Positions 2,898-63,025 of a DNA stretch of 64,000 nt are shown one piece after another (the first letter of the stretch is position 1; every line of letters begins with the position of its first letter). The position numbers and the translations under genes were made by a program. The stretch is from the NCBI GenBank assembly GCA_031283185.1, contig JAITCH010000010.1, positions 63,237 to 127,236 on the forward strand, given 5' to 3'. The notes under the pieces are model-generated. The model was given only the letters and a program-made list of their open reading frames with translations. It did not search any database and had not been told where the DNA came from. Origin of the DNA: Rickettsiales bacterium (GTDB lineage: Bacteria; Pseudomonadota; Alphaproteobacteria; Rs-D84).

Positions 2898-2970
2898 GCA
2901 GGTGGGGGTTTCCTGCCCCACACTCATCTCCCCTTGTCATTCCCGCGAAGGCGGGAATCTCAAATTGTTA
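2898..2970. repeat. composite repeat family B copy (degenerate G-rich hairpin + GTCATTCCCGCGAAGGCGGGAATCTCAAATTGTTA), overlapping the 3' end of the GIY-YIG gene
   Basis: Sequence match to 29117-29194 and 55347-55453. Confidence 0.75.
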
Positions 2971-3278
2971 ATTTCCGCTGTTATTCCGGGGCATATATCT
3001 TCGGACAAATCATTCCATTCGGGATTGCTTTCTATTACCAATCGCTGTTTCCAACTTTTATTCCATTTCTTCAACTGCTTTTCCCGCACAACGGCGTGTT
3101 CCATATCTCCTTGAACTTCATACCAAACCAACTTATCCAGGTTGTATCTGTCGGAATGGCTATCCTTGAAAAACCCCGTCTTGTGTTGGTAAACGCGATT
3201 AACCAGGTCGGAGGTTGATCCGATATAGGTTCTGCCCATCCAACAATTAGTCATAATATATACGCAAGGCTGTTTCAT
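2937..3278 (-). CDS. GIY-YIG nuclease family protein (YhbQ/UPF0213-like)
   Basis: Starts VYIMTN...GRTYIGSTSDLVNRVYQHK...KLVWYE, which fits the GIY-YIG core. The last ~10 codons (NNLRFPPSRE) are encoded by the repeat at 2936-2970. Confidence 0.7.
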   Translation of the reverse strand: MKQPCVYIMTNCWMGRTYIGSTSDLVNRVYQHKTGFFKDSHSDRYNLDKLVWYEVQGDMEHAVVREKQLKKWNKSWKQRLVIESNPEWNDLSEDICPGITAEINNLRFPPSRE

Positions 3279-3325
3279 AGGACAAGGCTATCAAATTTTA
3301 TAAGTCCGCATCAAAGGATTTTTTA

Positions 3326-3406
3326 CAATTTGAGATTCCCGCCTTCGCGGGAATGACGACACTTCGTGTCGTTTCTAGCGGGTGGGGGTCGGGAGATCCC
3401 CACCCG
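3326..3406. repeat. composite repeat family B copy in inverted orientation (CAATTTGAGATTCCCGCCTTCGCGGGAATGAC ... GCGGGTGGGGGTCGGGAGATCCCCACCCGC)
   Basis: Reverse complement of the family B consensus. Together with 2898-2970 it brackets the GIY-YIG gene. Confidence 0.75.
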
Positions 3407-4926: not shown

Positions 4927-4965
4927 GCCGGAAGGGGTCTCAGAATCCCTTCCGGCATATTTTAT
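4927..4965 (+). terminator. intrinsic terminator-like hairpin GCCGGAAGGGGTCTCAGAATCCCTTCCGGC followed by ATATTTTA
   Basis: A 9-bp GC-rich stem followed by a T-rich tract, read directly from the sequence. Confidence 0.5.
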
Positions 4966-5036: not shown

Positions 5037-5122
5037 GGGGGTGTTGACCCGGACATAAGGTTTTCTGTGGATTTTTATCCTTTGACAAATAATAAAAGTG
5101 GGTGGAAAAGTTATAAAAAGTT

Positions 5123-5249
5123 CTCCTCCATTGGAGGAGTCCCCCACGAAGTGGGGGGAGGTGGTTTAGCCACATTAAGGTAAGTAGTGCGGGGATATTT
5201 GGTTAAACCACCCCGCGCCTACGGCGCACCCCTCCACCGGAGGGGAATT
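5123..5249. repeat. composite structured repeat copy A: hairpin, hairpin, inverted-repeat core GGTGGTTTAGCCAC...GTGGTTAAACCACC, hairpin, hairpin
   Basis: CTCCTCCATTGGAGGAG, TCCCCCACGAAGTGGGGGGA, the core, CGCGCCTACGGCGCA and CCCCTCCACCGGAGGGG. The architecture is the same as the copy at 35317-35454. Confidence 0.8.
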
Positions 5250-10453: not shown

Positions 10454-10461
10454 AAAATAAG

Positions 10462-10504
10462 ATTCCCCTCCAAGGTGGAGGGGTGCCCGAAGGGCGGGGT
10501 GGTT
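10462..10504. repeat. terminal half-copy of the composite repeat (AATTCCCCTCCAAGGTGGAGGGGTG + GC hairpin + GGGGTGGTT)
   Basis: Matches the ends of the copies at 5123-5249 and 35317-35454. Confidence 0.75.
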
Positions 10505-17871: not shown

Positions 17872-17901
17872 AAAAAATCCCCTCTAATAGAGGGGATTTT
17901 T
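17872..17901 (+). terminator. intrinsic terminator CCCCTCTAATAGAGGGG followed by a T-run
   Basis: Hairpin flanked by an A-run and a T-run, directly after rpsU. Confidence 0.7.
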
Positions 17902-18289: not shown

Positions 18290-18330
18290 TAGCGGGAAGG
18301 GATCTCCGAATCCCTTCCCGAACATTTTAA
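18290..18330. terminator. bidirectional terminator hairpin GGGAAGGGATCTCCGAATCCCTTCCC between convergent genes
   Basis: A 10-bp stem located between the 17960..18268 (+) ORF and trpS (-). Confidence 0.55.
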
Positions 18331-24210: not shown

Positions 24211-24239
24211 AAATCCCCTCCAACGGAGGGGATTTTTTT
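24211..24239 (+). terminator. intrinsic terminator TCCCCTCCAACGGAGGGGA followed by T7
   Basis: Hairpin followed by a T-run directly after the 22840..24204 stop. Confidence 0.75.
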
Positions 24240-29116: not shown

Positions 29117-29194
29117 GCGGGGCGGGGTCTCCTGACCCCGCCCCGCAATCGTCATCCCCGCGAAGGCGCGGATCTCAAATTGTATAATGCAAAT
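29117..29194. repeat. composite repeat, family B: G-rich hairpin GCGGGGCGGGGTCTCCTGACCCCGCCCCGC + GTCATCCCCGCGAAGGCGCGGATCTCAAATTGTATAATGCAAAT
   Basis: Same architecture as the copies at 2898-2970, 3326-3406 (inverted) and 55347-55453. Confidence 0.8.
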
Positions 29195-30679: not shown

Positions 30680-32119
30680 ATGAAAAAATACATAACCACG
30701 CCGATTTACTATATGAATGCCGCGCCCCATATTGGCAGCGCATATACCACCGCAATGTGCGATATTTTGCGCCGCGCTTATATCCGCCAAGGGCACGAGG
30801 TTTTCTTTACCAGCGGCAGTGATGAGCACGGCCAGAAAATGCAAGAGGCTGCGGAACGCGCCGGTATGTCATTTACGGAATTTTTGGATAAACAAAGCGC
30901 GCGGTTTAGGGAACTTACGATTGCGCTGAATGCCGCGCCGGATTTCTTTATTCGCACCAGTATGGATCAGCATAAAAAGATTGTCAGCGAATGGCTGGCG
31001 GACGCGCATCAAAAGGGCATTTTGGTAAAGAAAAAGTATAAGGGGCTTTATTGTGTCGGCTGCGAGCAGTTCAAGAAAGAATCAGATTTGATAGAGGGCG
31101 GCCTGTGCCCAGACCACCGCAAAGCACCGGTTGAAATGGAAGAAGAAAATTACTTTTTACCATTAGAGCCGCACCGCGAATGGTTGCGGGAATACATTGC
31201 GAAAAATCCCGAATGGATTCAGCCGGAAAGTTATCGCGCTGAAATTCTTAATATGTTATCAGAGCCGTTGGAGGATTTGTCCATTTCGCGGCCCCGGTCG
31301 CGGGTTGCACTGGGGATTGAATTTCCATTTGACGGGGATCATATAACTTATGTTTGGTATGACGCGCTGATTAATTATGTGTCTTCATTGCGTATAAACA
31401 AGTTTGATGAATTTTGGGCGGGCGCGATTCATGTAATTGGCAAGGACATATTAAAACCGCATTGTATTTTCTGGCCGATAATGTTGCGCGTTATGGGTAT
31501 GCCCCCGGCGCACCGCACATTTATACACGGATTTTGGACGGGCGAGGGCGGAATAAAAATGTCAAAGTCGCTGGGGAATGTAATTGATCCGTTTGAAGTT
31601 ATTGATGAAATCGGCGCGGACGCGTTAAGGTTTTACTTCGCACAGAACGCGGCGATTGCAAGGGATTCGACTATATCGCGGGAGTTGCTGAGAAAGGGCT
31701 ATGAAACCTTGGCGAACAATTTCGGCAATTTGTATCTGCGAACTTTTAAGATGATTGAGAAATATAATGTAGAATTCCCCTCCAAGGCTTGTCGCGCCGA
31801 AACGAAGTGTAGGCGGATGGAGGGGTCGGCGAAGCCGGGGGTGGTTGAGAATCTATCCGACATCCAAACCCTTGCGAATGATATTTTACGGCGCAGTTCG
31901 GAGTTAAATTTGTATATAGATCAGACGCAGCCGTGGGCATTGGCAAAGGACGAGGCGAAGAGGGATGAGTTGGTGCAGGTGCTGCAAACATTGGCGAATG
32001 GGGTTTTGGAATTGGCAGATGCGGTTGCGCCGATTATGCCGGATACTTCGGATAAAATTATTCAGTCATTCAAAACCAAAGAGTCCGTAGTCCTGTTTCC
32101 AAAGTTGGAAGATAAATAA
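30680..32119 (+). CDS. metG: methionyl-tRNA synthetase (short form)
   Basis: HIGH motif PHIGSAYT, zinc knuckles CVGC...CPDH, and KMSKS. Confidence 0.9.
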   Translation: MKKYITTPIYYMNAAPHIGSAYTTAMCDILRRAYIRQGHEVFFTSGSDEHGQKMQEAAERAGMSFTEFLDKQSARFRELTIALNAAPDFFIRTSMDQHKKIVSEWLADAHQKGILVKKKYKGLYCVGCEQFKKESDLIEGGLCPDHRKAPVEMEEENYFLPLEPHREWLREYIAKNPEWIQPESYRAEILNMLSEPLEDLSISRPRSRVALGIEFPFDGDHITYVWYDALINYVSSLRINKFDEFWAGAIHVIGKDILKPHCIFWPIMLRVMGMPPAHRTFIHGFWTGEGGIKMSKSLGNVIDPFEVIDEIGADALRFYFAQNAAIARDSTISRELLRKGYETLANNFGNLYLRTFKMIEKYNVEFPSKACRAETKCRRMEGSAKPGVVENLSDIQTLANDILRRSSELNLYIDQTQPWALAKDEAKRDELVQVLQTLANGVLELADAVAPIMPDTSDKIIQSFKTKESVVLFPKLEDK

Positions 32120-34527: not shown

Positions 34528-35301
34528 TTATTTCAACTCCAAAATCAATGGCGTATGGTCGCTGGAACTTGGGGCGCGGCGCGGGGATAAATCAATCTCA
34601 ATACTCTTCGCCATTGGCGCGGCCGCGCGGTTCAATAAAAAATAATCCAATCGCAATCCGTGTCCTTTTTCCAAACTTCCGCCGCGATAGCCAATCCAAG
34701 TATATCCAACTTCGTCTGGCCCGCGCAAAGCCCGCCAAGCATCCGTCCACCCGGCATCCAACCATTCCTGCATAATGCGCCGCGCCGCCGGGGCGGAAAT
34801 GGACGATCCTTCATAAGCCTTTGGATTCCACACATCAATATCCCGAATTGCAACATTAAAATCACCCACCAATATAGTCGGAAATTCGTCATCCAATAAC
34901 GGCGCGGCGAACTCCGAAAACTTTTTCATCCAATCAATTTTATAAGGAAATTTTGGCGAATCTTCCGCCTCGCCATTCGGCATATATACATTGACCAACC
35001 GCACGCGCCCGTCAATGATGCAGTCAACCATACGGGCATTCGGATCTCCCGGAAAAGTCGGCAGCCCGCGCGAAAAATCCTCTATGCTGAACTTAGAGAA
35101 CACCGCCACGCCGTTGTAAGACTTTTGCCCAAAGACCTTTATGTTATAGCCCAGGTGTTCGAAGATTATATGCGGAAATTGTTCGTCTTGCGCCTTGACT
35201 TCCTGGATCAGAATGACATCCGGGCGGGCGGCCTGCATCCAGTTGATAAAGTTCTCTGCGTGCGCGCGGATAGAGTTTATATTAAAAGTCGCAATTTTCA
35301 T
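34528..35301 (-). CDS. xth: exodeoxyribonuclease III
   Basis: MKIATFNINSIRA...QEVK, the EEP nuclease motifs. The start is chosen at the internal Met. Confidence 0.85.
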   Translation of the reverse strand: MKIATFNINSIRAHAENFINWMQAARPDVILIQEVKAQDEQFPHIIFEHLGYNIKVFGQKSYNGVAVFSKFSIEDFSRGLPTFPGDPNARMVDCIIDGRVRLVNVYMPNGEAEDSPKFPYKIDWMKKFSEFAAPLLDDEFPTILVGDFNVAIRDIDVWNPKAYEGSSISAPAARRIMQEWLDAGWTDAWRALRGPDEVGYTWIGYRGGSLEKGHGLRLDYFLLNRAAAPMAKSIEIDLSPRRAPSSSDHTPLILELK

Positions 35302-35316
35302 TTTTATCATCCATAA

Positions 35317-35454
35317 GTTCCCCTTCATTGAAGGGGTGTCGCCGCAGGCGACGGGGTAGTTTAGCCACATTTTGGCAAGCAGTGCGGTTATATGTGGTTA
35401 AACCACCCCGGCACTTCGTGCCACCCCTCCAACGGAGGGGAATTTTATTTTTAT
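35317..35454. repeat. composite structured repeat copy B (same architecture as 5123-5249, with compensatory stem changes)
   Basis: CCCCTTCATTGAAGGGG, GTCGCCGCAGGCGAC, the core GGGTAGTTTAGCCAC...GTGGTTAAACCACC, GGCACTTCGTGCC and CCCCTCCAACGGAGGGG. Confidence 0.8.
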
Positions 35455-35522: not shown

Positions 35523-37865
35523 ATGAAGATATTGAAACACCAATTTTTATGGTTTTCTGCTGCTTTGCTTGCGCTTGCATTGCCCGCGGCGTCCGAGCCT
35601 CGGCCAGATTTGGCGGACAATGAAGAAATAATTATTGATGAAGAAATTTATACCGAAGAATCAGAAACCCCGGCGGAACAGGGCGCGCGTCCAGTTATGG
35701 CATCTGCACCGGGAATGGTTCGTACGGGAACTCGGTCGGTTCGTGCTGGCGCAGCACCTGTGGCGGGTGCGATGACGCAGCAGCAGGGCAGGGGCGTTGT
35801 CAGCCGCCAGCCGGGAAATTTACAGCCTGCATTTAATAGTGGGCGCGTGGTCAGCGGGCGAAGTGCGGTGAATACGGGTCAGGTGAATGCGAATACAGCG
35901 CAAAGGTCGGCAACGACATCTCGTCCGACTGCGAATGCAGCAACCCCAAGATCTGGCGAAATTCATAGCCGCACTACTGGGCGGACTGGTGCGGTTCAAA
36001 CGGCACCTGCGGCTGATTCTGCGCGGACAATTTCTGCGCGGACACCTGGAACTACGGCAAGTGGTGTGAATACTGCGCGCGCATCGGTTATTACTTCGGT
36101 GAACAAGGCGTCTCCGGCGGCGGCGCGGCGGTCAAACAATACGGCGCGTAATGCTACGGCGGATGTGGTTGATCCTTCGGTGGAAAAGTATTCCAAGATG
36201 CGCCAGGAAGTCGAAAATCTAAAAACCGAAATGAACATTAATAATGACAAGGCAGAGGTTTATGCCCAGGTTTATGATAATTGCGAGGCGCGGTTCTTCG
36301 GATGTATGGATGACATTTGCGAACGGGTCAGCGATGAGATGGGTCGTTGCGCTTGTTCGCCGAATGCGGATACATATAAAGAAAATGCAGAGGCGTTAAA
36401 GCAGGCGAAGATTGACTTGCAGGATACGGTTCAGAATATCCAGTATTTGGGATTGACGGCAGAGGAAGTTAATTCGCTGTTCACAATTACCGAGGCCGAA
36501 GGCGCCTTAGAGGCGAATCAGTTTGGCGGCGGCGACCAGTCGGAATTGAAAAAAATGATTATGGGGATTCGTGATAACATTCCGGACATAAATAATCTCA
36601 GTTCTACCAGCAGCGGGATATTGACATCTTCGACTGGTTGGAATTTGGACGCAGATTTTTCGATTATGACGGATATGAATTCGTTCACATTTGGTAATGT
36701 AAAGGGCAATCAGTTCAATGACATTTCTGGTATGACTGGCGGCGATTTGTATAAAAGCGCGAAGAATGTGTGTCAAACCATTATGAACGAATGCAAAAAG
36801 AATAAGGTTGATGTGGACTTGATGCAGGCGAAATATGATGTAGAGGTTGGCAAGGCCTGCGTAGATTATAAAGGTATGTTAGAGGATCAGACGCAGTCAT
36901 TAAAAACCTTGAACAGGAATGCGAAGTATATGTTGGAACGCGCAAGATTTTCCGTGCATCAGAACAAGAACGCGTTGGATTTGAAGGGTTGCGTGCTGGA
37001 AATTGATAAATGTATGCAAGATGATTTCGTATGCGGTAAGGATTATAAGAAATGCCTCGATCCGACTGGTCAGTATATTTCAGTGGATAGCAAGGTTGTT
37101 CCCGGCGCAGATTTGCCTGTTGGCCAGATAAGGTTGTGGGGCGCACGGAAAAGCGCAGTTAATTATAGCGAACTTGCGGGTCTTGGTGCCACTTCTAAAG
37201 ATATAGTGTCTGTGAATGGTGCGGCGGGATCTACTAATTACTTGGTTAATATGCTTACCTCCAAGGTGGGCGAGATTGATAAACTGACGGGTAATGCGAC
37301 CAGTGGATATTGCGCGGGTGTTATGAGGCAGTGTCAGCGGTTCAGTTATGATTCGAATGCACAGTATAATTCGAATAATCTTGTGATTAAGAATTATGTA
37401 TATATGGCATTGCCAAAGATTATGTCGGCACAGGATACGATGATAAGCAATTATCGGACGCAGTGCACAACGGACTTAAAGCAGTGTTATCAGACGCAGT
37501 TGTTGACTTTCAATACTGGGCAGTATTATGGCGGACAAATAAACGGCAGCCAGTTGACCTGGGCGCATCTGAATTCAGCATTGTATGCGTGTGATAATAT
37601 AGGGCTTTCGTGCGCGTTCACTGTATTTAGCGGCGCGGATAATTTAGGAGAAACCGATAGCAGCGCGACAGCGAAGCAATGTCCGAGATATATAAAATGC
37701 GATGCAGAAAAAGGAACCTGTGATAATAAAGCAACCTTTGATGCCGATGGTTCTGCCCAAATATGTTCTAGAAGTATGATGATTAATTTGATTCAGGGCT
37801 TGTTGCAGTGTAATGGAACTTATCCAAAGACTTGGGAACCTGATAATAATGCTGTTTGCAAATAA
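35523..37865 (+). CDS. large secreted protein (780 aa): signal peptide, ~200-aa disordered R/T/A/S-rich region, coiled coil, Cys-rich C-terminal domain
   Basis: Signal peptide MKILKHQFLWFSAALLALALPAA and low-complexity composition. No domain is recognised. Confidence 0.55.
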   Translation: MKILKHQFLWFSAALLALALPAASEPRPDLADNEEIIIDEEIYTEESETPAEQGARPVMASAPGMVRTGTRSVRAGAAPVAGAMTQQQGRGVVSRQPGNLQPAFNSGRVVSGRSAVNTGQVNANTAQRSATTSRPTANAATPRSGEIHSRTTGRTGAVQTAPAADSARTISARTPGTTASGVNTARASVITSVNKASPAAARRSNNTARNATADVVDPSVEKYSKMRQEVENLKTEMNINNDKAEVYAQVYDNCEARFFGCMDDICERVSDEMGRCACSPNADTYKENAEALKQAKIDLQDTVQNIQYLGLTAEEVNSLFTITEAEGALEANQFGGGDQSELKKMIMGIRDNIPDINNLSSTSSGILTSSTGWNLDADFSIMTDMNSFTFGNVKGNQFNDISGMTGGDLYKSAKNVCQTIMNECKKNKVDVDLMQAKYDVEVGKACVDYKGMLEDQTQSLKTLNRNAKYMLERARFSVHQNKNALDLKGCVLEIDKCMQDDFVCGKDYKKCLDPTGQYISVDSKVVPGADLPVGQIRLWGARKSAVNYSELAGLGATSKDIVSVNGAAGSTNYLVNMLTSKVGEIDKLTGNATSGYCAGVMRQCQRFSYDSNAQYNSNNLVIKNYVYMALPKIMSAQDTMISNYRTQCTTDLKQCYQTQLLTFNTGQYYGGQINGSQLTWAHLNSALYACDNIGLSCAFTVFSGADNLGETDSSATAKQCPRYIKCDAEKGTCDNKATFDADGSAQICSRSMMINLIQGLLQCNGTYPKTWEPDNNAVCK

Positions 37866-37889
37866 TTTATAGCGGGTAAAATTCGACCA

Positions 37890-37917
37890 GTTCCCCTTCA
37901 AAAGAGGGGAACTTTTT
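37890..37917 (+). terminator. intrinsic terminator GTTCCCCTTCAAAAGAGGGGAAC followed by T5
   Basis: Hairpin plus a T-run after the stop at 37865. Confidence 0.7.
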
Positions 37918-41143: not shown

Positions 41144-41671
41144 ATGCACGAACGCACACTTGTAATCTTGAAACCTGATGCAATCGCCCGCGGACTGGCC
41201 GGGAAAATAATTACAGCAATTGAAGATTGCGGACTGAAAATAACTGACGCAAAATTAATGACCGCATCGCGTTTGACTGCCGAACAACATTATAACGGAT
41301 CACAGGAATTCTTGAATGCACTTGGGGTCAAGGCGATTGAAAATGCCAAGTCAAAGGGCGAAGACATAATCAAAAAATTCGGCACGGAAAATCCCGCGCA
41401 GATTGGCGCAATGATTCGCACTCGCATATTGAATTATATAACCGAAGGCCCTGTTATGCCGATGATTGCAGAGGGCAATGACGCGGTTCGTGTGGTTCGG
41501 AAATTGATTGGCGCAACAAATCCTGTGGATGCCGATCCGTCAACCATACGCGGCAAGTATTGCACGGATTCGCTGGAATTATCCAGCCGCGAGGGGCGTG
41601 CGACCCGGAACTTGGTTCACGCATCCGGCAATGTCGCCGAAGCCGCCGCCGAAATCCCCATTTGGTTTTAG
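41144..41671 (+). CDS. ndk: nucleoside diphosphate kinase (with a C-terminal extension)
   Basis: Starts ERTLVILKPDAI and carries ...NLVHASGNV, with the active-site His context. Confidence 0.8.
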   Translation: MHERTLVILKPDAIARGLAGKIITAIEDCGLKITDAKLMTASRLTAEQHYNGSQEFLNALGVKAIENAKSKGEDIIKKFGTENPAQIGAMIRTRILNYITEGPVMPMIAEGNDAVRVVRKLIGATNPVDADPSTIRGKYCTDSLELSSREGRATRNLVHASGNVAEAAAEIPIWF

Positions 41672-43421: not shown

Positions 43422-43471
43422 AATTCCCCTCCAAGGTGGAGGGGTGGTGGCGTAGCCGCCGGGGTGGTTGG
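43422..43471. repeat. terminal half-copy of the composite repeat
   Basis: AATTCCCCTCCAAGGTGGAGGGGTG-GTGGCGTAGCCGCC-GGGGTGGTTGG. Confidence 0.75.
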
Positions 43472-44794: not shown

Positions 44795-44843
44795 AATTCC
44801 CCGCCAAGGGTGGCGGGGTGTCTGCGAAGCAGACGGTGTGGTT
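44795..44843. repeat. terminal half-copy of the composite repeat
   Basis: AATTCCCCGCCAAGGGTGGCGGGGTG-TCTGCGAAGCAGAC-GGTGTGGTTCG. Confidence 0.7.
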
Positions 44844-47490: not shown

Positions 47491-47544
47491 AAATTCTCCT
47501 CCTGTGGAGGAGTCCGGGCGAAGCCCGGGAGGTGGGTCTACCAT
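47491..47544. repeat. 5'-half copy of the composite repeat (subfamily with GGTGGGTCTACC core), directly upstream of the DUF559 gene
   Basis: AAATTCTCCTCCTGTGGAGGAGTCCGGGCGAAGCCCGGGAGGTGGGTCTACCAT, identical over 56 bp to 48002-48057. Confidence 0.8.
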
Positions 47545-47564
47545 TAATCCTTGGGCAACAAACA

Positions 47565-47978
47565 ATGTCAATAGTTATTCAATACAATCCAAATCTTCGC
47601 AACAATGCAAAAGCATTACGCAAGGCGGGTATATTATCCGAAATCCTTCTATGGGATCAGATAAAGCGAGGTCAAATAAATGGTCTTGATTTTGACCGAC
47701 AACGAATCATGGGAAATTATATAGTGGATTTCTGCTGCCCAGATACAGGTGTAGTTATAGAGATTGACGGACATTCGCATGACTTTAAGGAACTGCACGA
47801 TACCAAGCGTGAGGAATATCTAAAAAGCCTGGGTCTTGAAACTATACATATCGCGGATATTGATGTTAAGCAAAGTTTAGATGGTGTTGTTGGAATGTTA
47901 AAGGCGCATCCATTTTTGCAAAATCCAATTAAAGATAGAAAATGTGTTTTTATACATAATTCTCCTCTTGTGAATTAG
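47565..47978 (+). CDS. DUF559-family endonuclease-like protein (Vsr/restriction-endonuclease-like fold)
   Basis: ...GNYIVDFCCPDTGVVIEIDGHSHD...EYLKSLGLETIH, the typical DUF559 pattern. Confidence 0.65.
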   Translation: MSIVIQYNPNLRNNAKALRKAGILSEILLWDQIKRGQINGLDFDRQRIMGNYIVDFCCPDTGVVIEIDGHSHDFKELHDTKREEYLKSLGLETIHIADIDVKQSLDGVVGMLKAHPFLQNPIKDRKCVFIHNSPLVN

Positions 47979-48001
47979 GATTTGGTAGTGTGGCACTGAC
48001 T

Positions 48002-48128
48002 AAATTCTCCTCCTGTGGAGGAGTCCGGGCGAAGCCCGGGAGGTGGGTCTACCATATCTATGAAACGCAAGCCTAACCCGGAGACCCACCCCGTCCGCTT
48101 CGCGTCCACCCCTCCACCGGAGGGGAAT
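48002..48128. repeat. full composite repeat copy (GGTGGGTCT...AGACCCACC core subfamily), immediately downstream of the DUF559 gene
   Basis: Its 5' half is identical to 47491-47544. The 3' half ends CCCCTCCACCGGAGGGGAATT, as in the other copies. Confidence 0.8.
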
Positions 48129-48247
48129 TGGGCCCCGGAACGAGTTGGATTTCAAGTGGCAACGCAGAAATCTTAAGAGTTCCAGGCGAACATCCCTCAA
48201 CATCCACCCGCTCCATAACCCCCTCGCGCGCCACAATAACTTTCCGC

Positions 48248-55346: not shown

Positions 55347-55453
55347 GGCGGGTGGGGGTCTCCCGACCCCCACCCGAACATTTTACAAAAATTGCTTTTG
55401 CAATTTTTGTCATTCCCGCGAAGGCGGGAATCTCAGATTGTAAAATGCAAAAT
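55347..55453. repeat. composite repeat family B copy: GGGTGGGGGTCTCCCGACCCCCACCC hairpin, a 10-bp-arm palindrome spacer, and GTCATTCCCGCGAAGGCGGGAATCTCAGATTGTAAAATGCAAAAT
   Basis: Matches 2898-2970, 3326-3406 and 29117-29194. The repeat supplies the ATG/5' region of the downstream OMP gene. Confidence 0.8.
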
Positions 55454-56185: not shown

Positions 56186-56785
56186 ATGGCAATAAAGAAA
56201 AAGAAATCATCAGCAAAAAAGTCCCCATCAAAGGTCGTGCACTCAAAAGTCCCCTTCGCTGGCGAAGGGGTGGCGGGCTTTGCCCGCCGGGGTAGTGGTA
56301 ATAATCTGTCAGCCGAATCGACCGGGTTTGTCCGTTTCGGGGACGCGCTGAACAACTTCTTCCGCGGATATTTTGATTGTTATGGCACGGCGACCCGCGC
56401 AGAATTTTGGTGGCCGGTTTTGGCTGTGGTTTTATTGGTGGGTTTGCCGTGGGCATTGCCAGGATTTATTTTGGCGATTATGGTTCCGTTTGTAATGGTT
56501 ACGATTCGCCGTATGCACGACATTGGGAAATCTGGCTGGCATTATTACGGAATTGAAATTGGCTTTTTCGCGCTGTATCAAGTATTGACTGCGATTGCGA
56601 CTAGCCTTGCGGATAAAGAGATGCGCCTGATAGGCGATCCGGAAGAATTGCACGAAGTTATTGTTCATACGGGGCTTAGCGGCTTTATTGATGCGTTTGC
56701 GCTTGTTATGATGTTGGTAGTCAGCGCATATCTGATTTCATTATTGATCCGCCCATCTCTTCTAACCGGCAATAAGTATCGCTAA
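56186..56785 (+). CDS. DUF805-family inner membrane protein
   Basis: RRMHDIGKSGWHYY motif and TM helices. Confidence 0.6.
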   Translation: MAIKKKKSSAKKSPSKVVHSKVPFAGEGVAGFARRGSGNNLSAESTGFVRFGDALNNFFRGYFDCYGTATRAEFWWPVLAVVLLVGLPWALPGFILAIMVPFVMVTIRRMHDIGKSGWHYYGIEIGFFALYQVLTAIATSLADKEMRLIGDPEELHEVIVHTGLSGFIDAFALVMMLVVSAYLISLLIRPSLLTGNKYR

Positions 56786-56792
56786 GCCGATG

Positions 56793-56822
56793 CCGGGCGG
56801 GGTCTCCGAACCCCGCCCGGAA
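56793..56822. repeat. solo G-rich hairpin of repeat family B (CCGGGCGGGGTCTCCGAACCCCGCCCGG); may also serve as a terminator
   Basis: Same GGGGTCTCC-N-ACCCC design as the hairpins at 29117, 3378 and 55347. Confidence 0.6.
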
Positions 56823-56841
56823 CCATTTCCTCACCTTATTA

Positions 56842-58392
56842 TTACGCTCCGAACTTACCCCTATTAATCGATCTGTATGTCAATGCCTCGGCAATATCTT
56901 CCATAATGATATTTTCTGCGCCACGCAAATCTGCAATCGTCCGTGCGATTCGTAATACGCGATTGTATCCGCGCGCTGACAGCGACATTTTTTCCGCCGC
57001 TAAATTTATAAAGTCGCGCAACTCTTGCGTCAATGCGGTGGCGGTTTCCAACTCGCGCCCGTCCAGCCGGGCATTCAGAATTTCGCGCCCGAAAAGTTTC
57101 ACGCTTCGCGCGATCTGCCGTTCCCGCGCGGCGCAGGTGCGTGCCCGAATCGCTGCGGATGTTTCCTCGGGCGCGCTTTCTGTCCGCCCCAGTTCCCAAG
57201 GGTTCACCGAATCAACTTCAACATGCAAATCGATTCGATCCATTAGTGGTCCTGAAATTTTATTTTGATACGCCTCGGCACAGCGCGGTGCCTTGGAGCA
57301 CGATAATTTTGCATTCCCCAGGTGTCCGCACGGGCAGGGATTCATTGCCGCAATAAGTTGAAATTGCGCGGGGTATGTTGCATTGCGTTTCGCGCGCGAA
57401 ATGGTAATGCCGCCGGTTTCCATTGGCTGCCGTAAAATCTCTAATGCGCCGCGCTGAAATTCGGGCAGTTCGTCCAAAAATAACACGCCATTGTGCGCCA
57501 AAGAAATCTCGCCGGGCAGCGCGTTGGAACCGCCGCCGGACAGCGCGATTTGACTTGCGGTGTGGTGGACGGCGCGGAACGGACGGGCATTCATCAACCC
57601 GCCGCCTTTGAGGAGCCCCGCGACAGAATAGATGACCGAAGTATCTAAAACCTCGCGTTGCGTCATCGGCGGCAATATAGAGCCGAGGCGCGATGCGAGC
57701 ATTGATTTACCCGCGCCCGGAGGGCCGACCATTAACATTGCGTGCCCGCCTGCCGCGGCGATTTCCAATGCCCGTTTTGCTGCCGCTTGCCCCTTTACTT
57801 CGGACATATCTGCCGAATCAGTTCCCCTCCGGTGGAGGGGTGCCGCCAAAGGCGGCGGGGTGGTCTCGGGCGCAGGCATTGGTTCATTATGTCTAAACCA
57901 ATTCACCAAATCCAAAACATTTCCGGCGGCCAGGATATTTTTATTTCCCGCCCACTTGGCCTCGTCCATATTGTCAACGGGGCAAATGATGCCCAACCCT
58001 TGGTCGTTTGCCCAAATACTGGCGGGCAGGACGCCATTTGCCCGCAGGATTGTGCCGTCAAGGCCGACTTCGCCCATAATGACATATTTTGCCAGTTCTT
58101 CTTCTGGCAATACGCCCATCGCGGCGAGAACGGCGCATAGAATCGGCAGGTCAAAGTGCGCACCGGTCTTGGTCAGGTCGGCGGGCGCAAGGTTCACTAC
58201 GACTTTCTTTGCGGGTATGGACAGGTTCATTGCCTTGAAGGCGGATTCAATGCGGGTGGATGCTTCTTTGACGGCGCGGTCGGCGAGCCCAACGATGAAG
58301 AATTTAACCATTCCGTGGGATATTTGCGCCTGTGCTTCGACGCGGGTTATTTCCAGTCCATTAAAAACGATAGTATTTATATTCGCCGTCAT
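56842..58392 (-). CDS. comM: YifB/ComM-family Mg-chelatase-like AAA+ ATPase, carrying an in-frame half-repeat insertion in the inter-domain linker
   Basis: Lon-like N-terminal domain, Walker A GPPGAGKS, and a C-terminal ChlI-like domain. The repeat at 57821-57864 encodes PETTPPPLAAPLHRRG. Confidence 0.9.
   Translation of the reverse strand: MTANINTIVFNGLEITRVEAQAQISHGMVKFFIVGLADRAVKEASTRIESAFKAMNLSIPAKKVVVNLAPADLTKTGAHFDLPILCAVLAAMGVLPEEELAKYVIMGEVGLDGTILRANGVLPASIWANDQGLGIICPVDNMDEAKWAGNKNILAAGNVLDLVNWFRHNEPMPAPETTPPPLAAPLHRRGTDSADMSEVKGQAAAKRALEIAAAGGHAMLMVGPPGAGKSMLASRLGSILPPMTQREVLDTSVIYSVAGLLKGGGLMNARPFRAVHHTASQIALSGGGSNALPGEISLAHNGVLFLDELPEFQRGALEILRQPMETGGITISRAKRNATYPAQFQLIAAMNPCPCGHLGNAKLSCSKAPRCAEAYQNKISGPLMDRIDLHVEVDSVNPWELGRTESAPEETSAAIRARTCAARERQIARSVKLFGREILNARLDGRELETATALTQELRDFINLAAEKMSLSARGYNRVLRIARTIADLRGAENIIMEDIAEALTYRSINRGKFGA
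57821..57864. repeat. terminal half-copy of the composite repeat, inserted in-frame within comM
   Basis: GTTCCCCTCCGGTGGAGGGGTG-CCGCCAAAGGCGGC-GGGGTGGTCT on the plus strand. It is read through on the minus strand. Confidence 0.8.
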
Positions 58393-58513: not shown

Positions 58514-60010
58514 ATGCAAAAATTTATATTTGGAAGTTTGGCGGTTCTGTTCAGTGCATCTGCTGCGTCTGCGAATACATATTATAATCCTGGGAATGTG
58601 GGTCAGTATAACCAAGGTGGATTTATAGGGCAGGGTAATGCCAGTCAGCAGTATCAACCTCGCGGCGGCGGTTATCAGGGAAATTATCAAGGCGGTGGCT
58701 ATCAGGGTGGCGGCTATCAGCCGCAACAGAATCAGCAATTTCGTCCTTATGGACAGGGCGCGCCCGGCGCGTATGGCCAGCAGAATCGCGGATACGGATA
58801 TGGTCAACAGGGGCAGCAGTCTCGCGGACAGAAACCGCAGGCGAGCAAGGCGTTCGAGTTTGATGTGTTTGCGGGATATGAGGGCGCAGATTTTGGATTC
58901 AATATGAATAGTGCTGGGTCAGAGATTAGCTTTAATAATATCACTTGGCAAAAGATTGGCGCGGCGGGCAAGGGGACATTTGACTTGGGCGGCACGGCTG
59001 TGGAGATAAAGGGCGGATTGGAACTTGGCACGCAGGGCAAGTCCGGCACCGTTACGGACGATGATATGCAGAATGGAGGAATATGGAGTGGCTTTGTATA
59101 TTTCTCAAATGGCGCGCAAGATCCTTCGCTTTTGAATTGGTCTAGTCTGGGCGGCGATAACGAATGGGTCAATTTTGGATCCACAGAATTGGCGTATGGC
59201 GTGGGCGAGCAGGGCAAAGGAAGTTCTCTTGGATTTTTTGCATCTGTTGGTCTGGCGAATGGTTGGACATTGGCGGATAATATAACTTTAAAGCCATCGG
59301 TTGGTTATAGATATGAAAGTTATAAATTGATTGGACAGAATGTTATAACGACATCGGTTCTTGCAATTTTGGGCGAAGGATATGACGAGCAGGGTGTTCC
59401 ATATATGATGGGGGATTTGCAGGCGGTTGCTGATTTCTGTGGGAACGCGTCAAATGCTTGTGATGTTATGGTTGTTTTTGATAAGGATGACATACCTCAT
59501 TTTGTCGGATTTGTTATGGGGCTAGACGATTATGACGAGCCGTGGTTTTTAACTTTGGCTTCGGCGCACGCATTGGATGGCATTACGCATAAGTATGATG
59601 TTGTTTGGGCGGGACCATTTATCGCAGCGGACATAGAGGCGAAGTTGATGCCAAAGATGACGGCGAATATGCGGATTGAAATAGGTTTCCCTGGATATTC
59701 GTCCGAGGCGGATCAGCCGTTCCGTAGTGATTTGGCGCATCCAGTGGCGTTTAGGGATTCTGCGGGAATGTTCAGCGGGATGCATTATGGGTTGATGTTG
59801 GGCTATACGGCGGCGATTACGGACGGGATGTCGGTTGGGTTAGATTGGAAATGGGATTATTATGAAGTTAAGGGTGCGGCGAGCGAGAGTTTCTATGCGC
59901 GTGGTTATCCTGCATATGAGGAACATGGTCCAAGCTTTAAGATTGATAATGAAGTGAATGCCCGGTATAAGCAGTCTGGCCTCCGCGCCACCCTCAAAAT
60001 GAAATTCTAA
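58514..60010 (+). CDS. outer-membrane protein with an N-terminal Q/G/Y-rich low-complexity region (GGYQG repeats)
   Basis: Signal peptide and a ~90-aa QGY-rich region, followed by a predicted beta-barrel ending ...LKMKF. Confidence 0.55.
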   Translation: MQKFIFGSLAVLFSASAASANTYYNPGNVGQYNQGGFIGQGNASQQYQPRGGGYQGNYQGGGYQGGGYQPQQNQQFRPYGQGAPGAYGQQNRGYGYGQQGQQSRGQKPQASKAFEFDVFAGYEGADFGFNMNSAGSEISFNNITWQKIGAAGKGTFDLGGTAVEIKGGLELGTQGKSGTVTDDDMQNGGIWSGFVYFSNGAQDPSLLNWSSLGGDNEWVNFGSTELAYGVGEQGKGSSLGFFASVGLANGWTLADNITLKPSVGYRYESYKLIGQNVITTSVLAILGEGYDEQGVPYMMGDLQAVADFCGNASNACDVMVVFDKDDIPHFVGFVMGLDDYDEPWFLTLASAHALDGITHKYDVVWAGPFIAADIEAKLMPKMTANMRIEIGFPGYSSEADQPFRSDLAHPVAFRDSAGMFSGMHYGLMLGYTAAITDGMSVGLDWKWDYYEVKGAASESFYARGYPAYEEHGPSFKIDNEVNARYKQSGLRATLKMKF

Positions 60011-60014
60011 TTAA

Positions 60015-60044
60015 AATCCCCCTCCATTGGAGGGGAATTTTCTT
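60015..60044 (+). terminator. intrinsic terminator CCCCCTCCATTGGAGGGG followed by a T-rich tract
   Basis: Hairpin directly after the stop. Confidence 0.65.
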
Positions 60045-62978: not shown

Positions 62979-63025
62979 AATTCCCCGCCAATGGTGGCGG
63001 GGTGGCACGAAGTGCCGGGGTGGTT
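62979..63025. repeat. terminal half-copy of the composite repeat
   Basis: AATTCCCCGCCAATGGTGGCGGGGTG-GCACGAAGTGCC-GGGGTGGTTAG. Confidence 0.75.

Follow-up and report, generated by a model that had tools for sequence, protein, structure and literature searches.

Background

In elements of the IS200/IS605 type the end hairpins share one strand instead of forming inverted repeats, and the enzyme is a Y1 transposase of the HUH class. Rickettsia palindromic elements (RPEs) are ~100-150 bp long and restricted to Rickettsia, and we know of no nuclease partner for them. RPEs are palindromic repeats found in frame inside functional protein-coding genes, and some copies of the repetitive extragenic palindromic (REP) sequences lie within open reading frames (ORFs) as well (PMC3733652). 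The systems formed by REP sequences, REP doublets forming hairpins (REPINs) and REP-associated tyrosine transposases (RAYTs) are reported to consist of dispersed palindromic units and a small nuclease-type gene flanked by two inverted units (PMC3116915, PMC3337134). How small palindromic repeats beyond REP-RAYT (REP-like elements, RPEs and "untagged" stem-loops) originate and spread is an open question (PMC3733652). The Vsr fold is found in a true homing endonuclease, I-Bth0305I, which nicks or cleaves DNA and drives the mobility of its own gene (PMC3239194). Here we describe a family of small two-hairpin repeats, which we call arms, and their association with genes of the DUF559 nuclease family. 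The starting point was a stretch of 64,000 nucleotides (hereafter the window) of a Rickettsiales bacterium (assembly GCA_031283185.1, contig JAITCH010000010.1, positions 63,237 to 127,236 of the forward strand).

An earlier note, made from the letters of the window, had described a structured repeat of ~130 bp at 5123-5249 and 35317-35454, and had proposed either a miniature inverted-repeat transposable element (MITE) or a family of structured RNAs. We found that arms and DUF559 genes accompany each other across many phyla. We consider it probable, with moderate confidence, that the 130-bp element is a gene-less, non-autonomous, REPIN/MITE-like derivative, and that the arm is the terminal inverted repeat of a minimal element carrying a DUF559 gene.

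A two-hairpin module beside a DUF559 gene

Comparison of full and half copies identified a module of ~45 nt with two hairpins, the arm, as the repeating unit in place of the composite of ~130 bp; arms stand alone, form tandem rows or are inverted, in either polarity. An arm reads, in order, (A)ATT, hairpin 1 (CCCCTCC, a loop of 2-6 nt, GGAGGGG), a T, hairpin 2 (a GC-rich stem of 3-8 bp and variable sequence, with a loop usually of 3 nt, GNA) and GGGGTGGT. A full copy consists of an arm on the plus strand, arm(+), a short core and an arm on the minus strand, arm(-), with the GGGGTGGT ends pointing inward. The window holds ~15 arms, namely three inverted pairs without a gene (5119-5249, 35316-35444 and 48003-48129; 127-131 bp each) and nine solo arms. 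A covariance model (R1) built from 29 arms, all from other genomes, and run with filters off gave 12 matches in the window with E <= 3e-8 and two of about 1e-4, and it reached a decayed arm at 59986-60039(-). The arm pairs and the adjoining gene are the following.

5119-5166, plus strand: left arm of copy 1, with CTCCTCC/GGAGGAG, CCCCCAC-GAA-GTGGGGG and then GAGGTGGT (R1 47.0 bits, E=2.4e-11)
5167-5205, no strand: core of copy 1, in which the inverted repeat continues (TTTAGCCACAT...ATTTGGTTAAA) about an unpaired centre; central hairpin in the DNA fold
5206-5249, minus strand: right arm of copy 1 (R1 68.8 bits, E=9.5e-18)
35316-35361, plus strand: left arm of copy 2 (R1 47.0 bits, E=2.5e-11)
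35401-35444, minus strand: right arm of copy 2 (R1 68.9 bits, E=8.9e-18)
47492-47544, plus strand: arm directly 5' of the DUF559 gene (R1 E=1.5e-10)
47565-47978, plus strand: DUF559 (Vsr-like PD-(D/E)XK) endonuclease gene, 137 aa (PF04480, E=1.1e-24)
48003-48129: copy 3, an arm pair directly 3' of the DUF559 gene, with arm(+) at 48003-48048, a core of 39 nt and arm(-) at 48084-48129 (R1 E=1.5e-10 and 5.3e-12)

Copies 1 and 2 are 82% identical across their right 90 nt (repeat family D8) and their cores agree at 35 of 43 positions; the left arm of copy 2 is placed between the divergent genes 34528-35370 (-) and 35523-37865 (+). The sequences and stems quoted earlier for the two copies are present in the DNA, and R1 recovered all seven sites listed as half copies (10462, 43422, 44795, 57821, 62979, 47491 and 48002); the site at 48002 proved to be the left arm of a third full pair, 48003-48129. 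Three arms are additional to that list: 31773-31846, 56247-56297 and the decayed 59986-60039(-).

The ORF 47565-47978 begins 20 nt after the arm 47492-47544 and is followed by copy 3, and 47492-47544 is identical to 48003-48055 over 53 of 53 nt (repeat family D14, 100% identity, and an exact-string check). The gene-bearing copy spans 47492-48129, and the gene's own right arm has decayed to AT-rich sequence. The encoded protein matches PF04480 with 86.9 bits against a curated cut-off of 20.6, and it keeps the family-invariant residues, including VDF...E-x-D-G-x-x-H-D. An AlphaFold 2 (AF2) model of it (predicted local distance difference test score, pLDDT, 83.5, with a low-confidence tail beyond residue 120) was compared with solved structures by Foldseek; its best matches are 3HRL, a DUF559 structure (E=2e-5), and, with probability 1.0, the catalytic domain of I-Bth0305I, a homing endonuclease (3R3P); Vsr (1VSR) is matched more weakly. 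By sequence, 3HRL is matched by the homologue at locus L050 (E=2.2e-15). Pfam scans of 43 ORFs of the window gave no transposase family; the earlier remark that no transposase is present overlooked the likely partner, which is this DUF559 gene.

Arms and DUF559 genes in other genomes

The association was examined in both directions. From arm to gene, we used at least 118 stretches of species-representative genomes that had been fetched by the arm pattern alone, where ~4 would be expected by chance (an estimate from the information content of the pattern). A DUF559 ORF, detected by tblastn with the window protein, adjoins arms in 12 of these loci, and in 7 of the 12 it lies exactly between arm(+) and arm(-). 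The inner lengths of such arm pairs are bimodal: 15 measure 28-88 nt and 7 measure 355-484 nt, all 7 of the latter with DUF559. Gene-bearing and gene-less pairs have the identical kind of ends, and the two sorts of unit are found adjacent to each other in the window (47492-48129) and at locus L056. Among 150 ORFs lying no more than 300 nt from arms, a Pfam census placed DUF559 first (8 occurrences) and no other unrelated family exceeded 2; no transposase family was among the top 25 of the 156 Pfam families of this census.

From gene to arm, 80 metagenome loci (203 kb) were chosen only by DUF559 similarity, and they contain more than 300 R1 matches. Among the 69 evaluable loci, which have at least 150 nt on both sides of DUF559, an arm(+) upstream together with an arm(-) at the 3' end is present in 57, and every one of the 69 has at least one arm. 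The tally of 57 was counted by hand from the model matches because a regular expression undercounts arms (195 against more than 300 by the covariance model in the 80 loci). The arms are visible even in the proteins: peptides encoded by them (such as NSPPLEG..GVV, FPSxGG and HPALKGTPPxEGN) occur in 87 of the 120 best DUF559 homologues, and most of the others terminate in HPAL or HPAF, where the right arm begins. A profile search with DUF559 returned 7,981 of 8,000 scored clusters at E <= 1e-10, which is a lower bound on the size of the family. The association of arms with DUF559 is tight and reciprocal.

Tandem arrays of arms also adjoin DUF559 genes, at L219 1828-2164, L192 1858-2149, L212 1831-2125 and L035 2477-2619. 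Their periods are 42, 42, 63 and 48 nt, each a multiple of 3; the array in L035 encodes a peptide repeat such as TTPxxxYxATPPxEGN. An arm array in a spirochaete genome (L117 6080-6203) has a period of 43.

Hairpins maintained by compensatory change

Folded as single-stranded DNA (ssDNA), copies 1 and 2 form hairpins 1 and 2, a long central hairpin and hairpins 3 and 4, five in all. The plus-strand folds have energies of -35.7 and -37.4 kcal/mol, and comparison with dinucleotide shuffles gives z = -6.2 and -6.7; copy 3 (48003-48129) folds more weakly (z = -4.3).

Hairpin 1 is nearly constant across genomes. Hairpin 2 is where the covariation lies: in the alignment of 29 arms both sides of its middle three pairs have changed in 11, 9 and 15 sequences, respectively. 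The compensatory stem changes that had been read from copies 1 and 2 are real: the covariation score is 0.264 as opposed to 0.063 in shuffles, none of 500 shuffles reaches it, and slid controls give 0.015-0.09. Among 184 unique arms there are 136 distinct hairpin-2 sequences, and 867 of 964 stem pairs (~90%) are Watson-Crick; in the shuffle control the pairing was 88% versus 33% in shuffled sequences. Arms of the window are very diverse too, with 12 different hairpin-2 sequences among 14 arms.

The mismatches that do occur in hairpin 2 are one-sided. Read on the arm strand, they comprise 70 G.A or A.G and 18 G.T or T.G, as against 2 C.T and 2 A.C or C.A; one common subfamily (GGC...GAC) swells the number of G.A mismatches, so that the ratio of G.T to A.C (18:2) is the more independent figure. 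The one-sidedness indicates that the G-rich strand is the strand that has to fold. The loops of hairpin 2 are GAA, GTA, GCA, AAA or GGA, closed by C-G. C-GNA-G loops are of the very stable d(GCGNAGC) mini-hairpin type, and such triloops are typical of DNA rather than of RNA hairpins. One-sided mismatches, GNA loops and arms that lie antisense to mRNAs favour ssDNA over RNA as the molecule that folds, and arms probably act as single-stranded DNA hairpins.

Two further features of hairpin 2 were observed. The same hairpin 2 (GGCACGAAGTGCC) is found at 35402-35440(-) and 62983-63024(+) joined to different forms of hairpin 1, CCCCTCC/GGAGGGG and CCCCGCC/GGCGGGG, and in every arm GGGGTGG stands on either side of hairpin 2, resembling a short direct repeat.

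Solo arms and arms read as protein

Besides the arm at 47492-47544, the window contains these solo arms, which by analogy with REP singlets may be regarded as single modules.

10461-10504, plus strand: between a merR-like gene and the next gene (R1 E=2.7e-11)
31773-31846, plus strand: in metG, its hairpin-1 loop enlarged by a 30-nt insertion (regular-expression match and fold)
43422-43469, plus strand: between convergent genes (R1 E=1.1e-11)
44795-44843, plus strand: between a tRNA gene (-) and an ORF (-) (R1 E=3.4e-08)
56247-56297, plus strand: near the 5' end of a DUF805 gene (R1 E=1.1e-4)
57820-57865, plus strand: antisense within comM/yifB (R1 E=1.7e-14)
59986-60039, minus strand: decayed arm, hairpin 1 intact and the hairpin-2 region AT-rich (R1 25.7 bits, E=4.5e-5)
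62979-63025, plus strand: ends 6 nt 5' of the ATG of an inositol-monophosphatase-family gene (R1 E=3.4e-13)

The arm in metG was missed as a whole by R1 because of the insertion in its loop. Eight of the nine solo arms of the window are on the plus strand, independently of the direction of the neighbouring genes, and the GC skew of the window is positive throughout. A bias towards the lagging-strand template, as in IS200/IS605, was considered from this skew and discarded, since 80 solo arms elsewhere divided 42 versus 38 by local GC skew (p=0.74); the strand bias of the window is therefore not used as evidence.

Three arms of the window lie inside ORFs that remain open. In metG (30680-32119), whose product has methionyl-tRNA synthetase (MetRS) matches in Pfam and PDB, the arm 31773-31846 is in frame and encodes EFPSKACRAETKCRRMEGSAKPGVV; aligned with solved MetRS structures, this segment corresponds to a variable segment of equal length. 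In the DUF805 gene (56186-56785) the arm 56247-56297 is in frame and encodes VPFAGEGVAGFARRGSG. In comM/yifB (56842-58392, -) the arm is antisense, also in frame, and encodes TTPPPLAAPLHRRGT in the linker between domains; this peptide is absent from all 11 nearest ComM homologues (65-78% identity). The comparison with related genomes that had been proposed yielded the absence of the comM arm from relatives, and no empty site at the nucleotide level.

Stop codons are scarce in arms: of the six reading frames 89% are open compared with 76% in shuffled sequences, and 51% of arms are open in all six frames compared with 20% of shuffles. We propose that insertions in genes therefore read through as short Pro/Gly-rich linkers and survive. 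Selection at the protein level on the arm peptides was also considered and rejected, since arms turn up in every frame and in either orientation, and also between genes.

In other phyla, complete restriction-modification (R-M) genes contain the whole arm-DUF559-arm unit in frame; these genes encode a 1,312-aa HsdR, an 843-aa Mod-like methyltransferase, a 952-aa MmeI-like enzyme and type ISP enzymes. The DUF559 gene often lacks its own start or stop and continues the reading frame of the host gene, and the position of the unit in HsdR and in type ISP enzymes is the same in different organisms. The in-frame units in R-M genes were located as follows.

L035, 983-4918
L090, 1853-4381
L013, 684-3539 and 3935-5713
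L005, a reverse-strand ORF of 556 codons that spans the DUF559 unit

In L013 a host segment of ~120 aa is duplicated between arm pairs.

Distribution among genomes

The matches listed for the arm pattern include Cyanobacteria, Bacteroidota, Bacillota, Planctomycetota, Fibrobacterota, Chlorobiota, Cloacimonadota, Spirochaetota and several proteobacterial classes, with Flavobacterium, Chryseobacterium, Pedobacter, Serratia and Advenella among the cultured genera. In these genomes arms again occur solo, as direct tandem arrays and inverted in both polarities. Moreover, 29 viral contigs carry arms, one of them a full unit.

The presence of arms is lineage-specific. Syntenic loci of ~20 kb in three relatives contain 0, 0 and 1 arm, against ~15 in the 64 kb of the window; in an independent assembly, the one other that an exact-protein search gave for the window organism, the contig ends in arms at both ends. 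At least one relative comes from the metagenome dataset Ga0123356, the same as termite-gut metagenome-assembled genomes among the genome matches. Identical or near-identical arms and arm pairs are present within L013 and within L105.

Other hairpin repeats in the window

The window contains a parallel case with the same architecture as DUF559 and its arms, a gene lying between dispersed hairpin repeats. A small GIY-YIG nuclease gene at 2937-3278 (-) (PF01541, E=3e-13) is placed between perfect inverted copies of a 33-nt hairpin repeat, GTCATTCCCGCGAAGGCGGGAATCTCAAATTGT (2936-2968 and 3325-3357). Solo copies of the GIY-YIG repeat (GTCATTCCCGCGAAGGCGGGAATC) are at 29151 and 55409; within an ORF, the copy at 55409 gives VIPAKAGIS. 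Six copies of a related hairpin family, GTCATCCCGGGGCTTGACCCCGGGATCT, are present (26447, 39580, 40525, 60744, 61809 and 63524), with compensatory stem variants (CCCGGGG/CCCCGGG versus CCCCCGG/CCGGGGG), and a loose pattern of the GTCATCCCGGGGCTTGACCCCGGGATCT type also matches related alphaproteobacterial loci (L092, L112, L120, L124 and L125).

A third hairpin family (repeat families D4 and D18) combines a stem that varies in sequence yet is paired in every copy with a loop region that is conserved, GGTCTCnGAnCC; GCGGGTGGGGGTCTCCCGACCCCCACCCG is an example. Its copies are often just 3' of genes and beside other repeats.

3378-3406: copy of the third hairpin family
4927-4964: copy of the third hairpin family
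18292-18329: copy of the third hairpin family
29117-29145: copy of the third hairpin family
55348-55385: copy of the third hairpin family
56792-56829: copy of the third hairpin family

Copies that consist of hairpin 1 only, AAATCCCCTCCAACGGAGGGGATTTTT, lie between A and T runs at 17875-17901, 24211-24237, 37889-37915 and 60015-60041 and have the look of bidirectional terminators; hairpin 1 of the arm may derive from them, or they may be what is left of it. Finally, a nucleoside diphosphate kinase gene (41144-41671) encodes 175 aa with a split Pfam match, which suggests an insert of ~35 aa that is unlike any of the repeat families.

Explanation and its alternatives

The reading of the 130-bp element as a gene-less derivative of a DUF559 element would work as follows. 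As ssDNA, the G-rich strand of the arm would fold up with CCCCTCC/GGAGGGG as hairpin 1 and a variable stem with a C-GNA-G loop as hairpin 2. These hairpins would be recognised by the DUF559 nuclease, which would nick at or near them; host repair or recombination would then copy arms, arm pairs or the whole unit to new sites, and insertions in genes would be translated as short Pro/Gly-rich linkers. That DUF559 mobilises arms is what we infer from the association.

Several points weigh against this mechanism. DUF559 and the arms are linked by association and not by catalysis, and a rare neighbouring transposase could lie outside the top 25 of the 156 families of the census. CCCCTCC/GGAGGGG and GGGGTGGT are near-invariant across phyla where the proteins are only 50-60% identical, which a conserved host factor could explain. 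The flanks of 25 arm pairs show no target-site duplication (TSD) beyond an ATT/AAT that may belong to the arm. No empty site was found at nucleotide resolution, the nearest relatives, ~77% identical in protein, being too divergent to give insertion boundaries or a target. The window copy of DUF559, its right arm gone, may be inactive. Unlike a simple insertion, the arms in comM and metG replace a variable segment with almost no net change in length. Plain copying followed by decay fails too: between related copies, divergence is far greater in the hairpin-2 stems than in the unpaired core. Length neutrality in comM and metG, together with the divergence of hairpin 2 and its pairing with different forms of hairpin 1, suggests patch-like replacement or shuffling of modules and not simple cut-and-paste.

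An alternative that we judge unlikely is that DUF559 acts as a homing endonuclease on the gene-less arm pair, cutting it so that repair copies the gene in, while the arms themselves spread by slippage, recombination or another enzyme. The likeness of the fold to I-Bth0305I in the Foldseek comparison (PMC3239194), the same ends on gene-less and gene-bearing pairs, the two sorts of unit side by side in the window (47492-48129) and in L056, and the recurrence of the unit at one position of HsdR and type ISP enzymes in different organisms would all suit it. It leaves unexplained the solo arms and pairs at unrelated loci and in coding sequences; the cores of gene-less pairs vary between genomes and offer no conserved target. 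The DUF559 unit also has none of the locations of a homing endonuclease (self-splicing intron, intein, or free-standing beside the target gene): Rfam gave no intron family in the stretch with the window copy, inspection by eye gave no intein junction motifs, and elsewhere the DUF559 ORF runs through the arms into the host ORF.

We regard as quite unlikely that the system is an old and immobile relic, in which the arms are harmless or mildly useful (as linkers, terminators or recombination sites) and a domesticated DUF559 serves the host, for instance as a nuclease associated with repair or restriction. The 12 hairpin-2 sequences among 14 arms, the decayed right arm of the window gene and the unit serving as an in-frame domain within complete R-M enzymes would be expected of a relic, and domestication has a reported precedent in RAYTs (PMC5581495). 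However, the arm sequence beside the window DUF559 gene is present twice in identical form, identical or near-identical arms and pairs recur in L013 and L105, copy number differs strongly between relatives, viral contigs carry arms, and the distribution over many phyla is patchy.

It is very doubtful that arms are REP/REPIN-type or IS200/IS605-derived sequences moved by an HUH (Y1) transposase encoded elsewhere, with DUF559 as a captured passenger. Such a view has in its favour an architecture of singlets, inverted doublets and clusters like that of REP, REPIN and bacterial interspersed mosaic elements (BIMEs), hairpins that appear to act on one strand, and the presence of REPs inside ORFs (PMC3733652). 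Against it, no Y1 or other transposase family was detected in 43 ORFs of the window or occurs among the commonest families adjacent to arms, although a distant RAYT could lie outside the 64 kb; arms have no GTAG or CGTC tag, and the adjacency to DUF559 is essentially universal in both directions, unlike that of a passenger.

That arms are structured RNAs under selection as RNA (cis-regulatory hairpins, terminators, mRNA stabilisers or small RNAs), as the earlier note had offered as a second possibility, is highly improbable, since the covarying stems, the G.U-compatible mismatches favoured on one strand, the terminator-like look of hairpin 1 with AATTTT and of the hairpin-1-only copies between A and T runs, and the arm that ends 6 nt before a start codon are set against the absence of any arm match in Rfam 15 (only tRNAs at gathering scores on the element regions, and no arm match even at E <= 10), arms in sense and antisense within ORFs, in tandem arrays and in both inverted polarities, at no constant place with respect to genes, triloops (C-GNA-G) of a kind characteristic of DNA, and a tie to a nuclease gene that has no RNA rationale.

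More tentatively, and with less than even confidence, we propose that this DUF559 subfamily provides the enzymes of an unrecognised class of minimal mobile elements, in which a Vsr-like nuclease would act on two-hairpin ssDNA ends and spread gene-less modules across phyla much as REPs or RPEs are spread. Since these modules would be suited to being translated, they could settle in coding sequences, those of essential genes and R-M enzymes included, and the GIY-YIG gene with its repeat would be a second instance. The DUF559-arm element is apparently undescribed: we found no publication linking DUF559 to a repeat or mobile element in the full-text literature, whose coverage leaves out most subscription journals, so that novelty is unproven.

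The arm family offers a specific and testable protein partner from a nuclease superfamily other than that of RAYT. If the proposal is true, it would assign a function to a very large family (at least 7,981 clusters at E <= 1e-10 among 8,000), and would explain variable N- and C-terminal extensions, spurious small ORFs (NSPPLEG..., ...TPPxEGN) and chimeric R-M proteins. It would also show one way in which a nuclease domain and Pro/Gly linkers come to be inserted into working enzymes, and a small nuclease gene with a private palindromic repeat family would be a general principle (DUF559, GIY-YIG). In practical terms, the arm is a compact marker that breaks short-read assemblies and could be of use in strain typing.

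Comparison with known systems

The window organism is an alphaproteobacterium whose metagenome-assembled genome NCBI labels Rickettsiales (100% ComM match), and arms resemble RPEs in lying in frame in genes, here in metG, comM and the DUF805 gene and elsewhere in R-M genes. With IS200/IS605 and palindrome-associated transposable elements (PATEs) they share a very small size and hairpins that are apparently one-stranded, so that an ssDNA intermediate is plausible; they differ from IS200/IS605 in that arms are inverted repeats and the enzyme is not a Y1 HUH transposase. DUF559 has the nuclease fold of I-Bth0305I (EDxHD/Vsr-like) and the E-x-D...H-D pattern of the active site. Unlike I-Bth0305I, it is found outside group I introns and inteins, is bracketed by hairpins, lacks the N-terminal DNA-binding domain and has gene-less derivatives throughout the genome.

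The MITE interpretation of the earlier note survives in part. Like MITEs derived from insertion sequences (IS), the elements are of 70-300 bp, non-coding, dispersed, structured and multicopy, have terminal inverted repeats and possess a longer gene-bearing relative with the same ends. They are not conventional IS-derived MITEs: no TSD was seen at 25 arm pairs, Pfam gave no transposase family in 43 window ORFs, DUF559 is all that the gene-bearing relative encodes, to the exclusion of DDE and other known transposases, and the repeating unit is the single arm and not the pair.

The arms are found, as in REP/REPIN-RAYT systems, as singlets, as inverted doublets that fold into long hairpins and as clusters. 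The gene that they flank encodes a PD-(D/E)XK, Vsr-like DUF559 protein and not an HUH Y1 transposase; the arms end in (A)ATT and GGGGTGGT and have no GTAG/CGTC tetranucleotide, the tag by which REPs are defined (PMC3733652). Each arm has two hairpins, unlike a REP, and the DUF559 gene is often without its own start or stop. The element described here fails the defining tests of REPIN-RAYT and of IS-derived MITEs; it resembles REPIN-RAYT in its architecture and the RPEs in its tolerance by genes.

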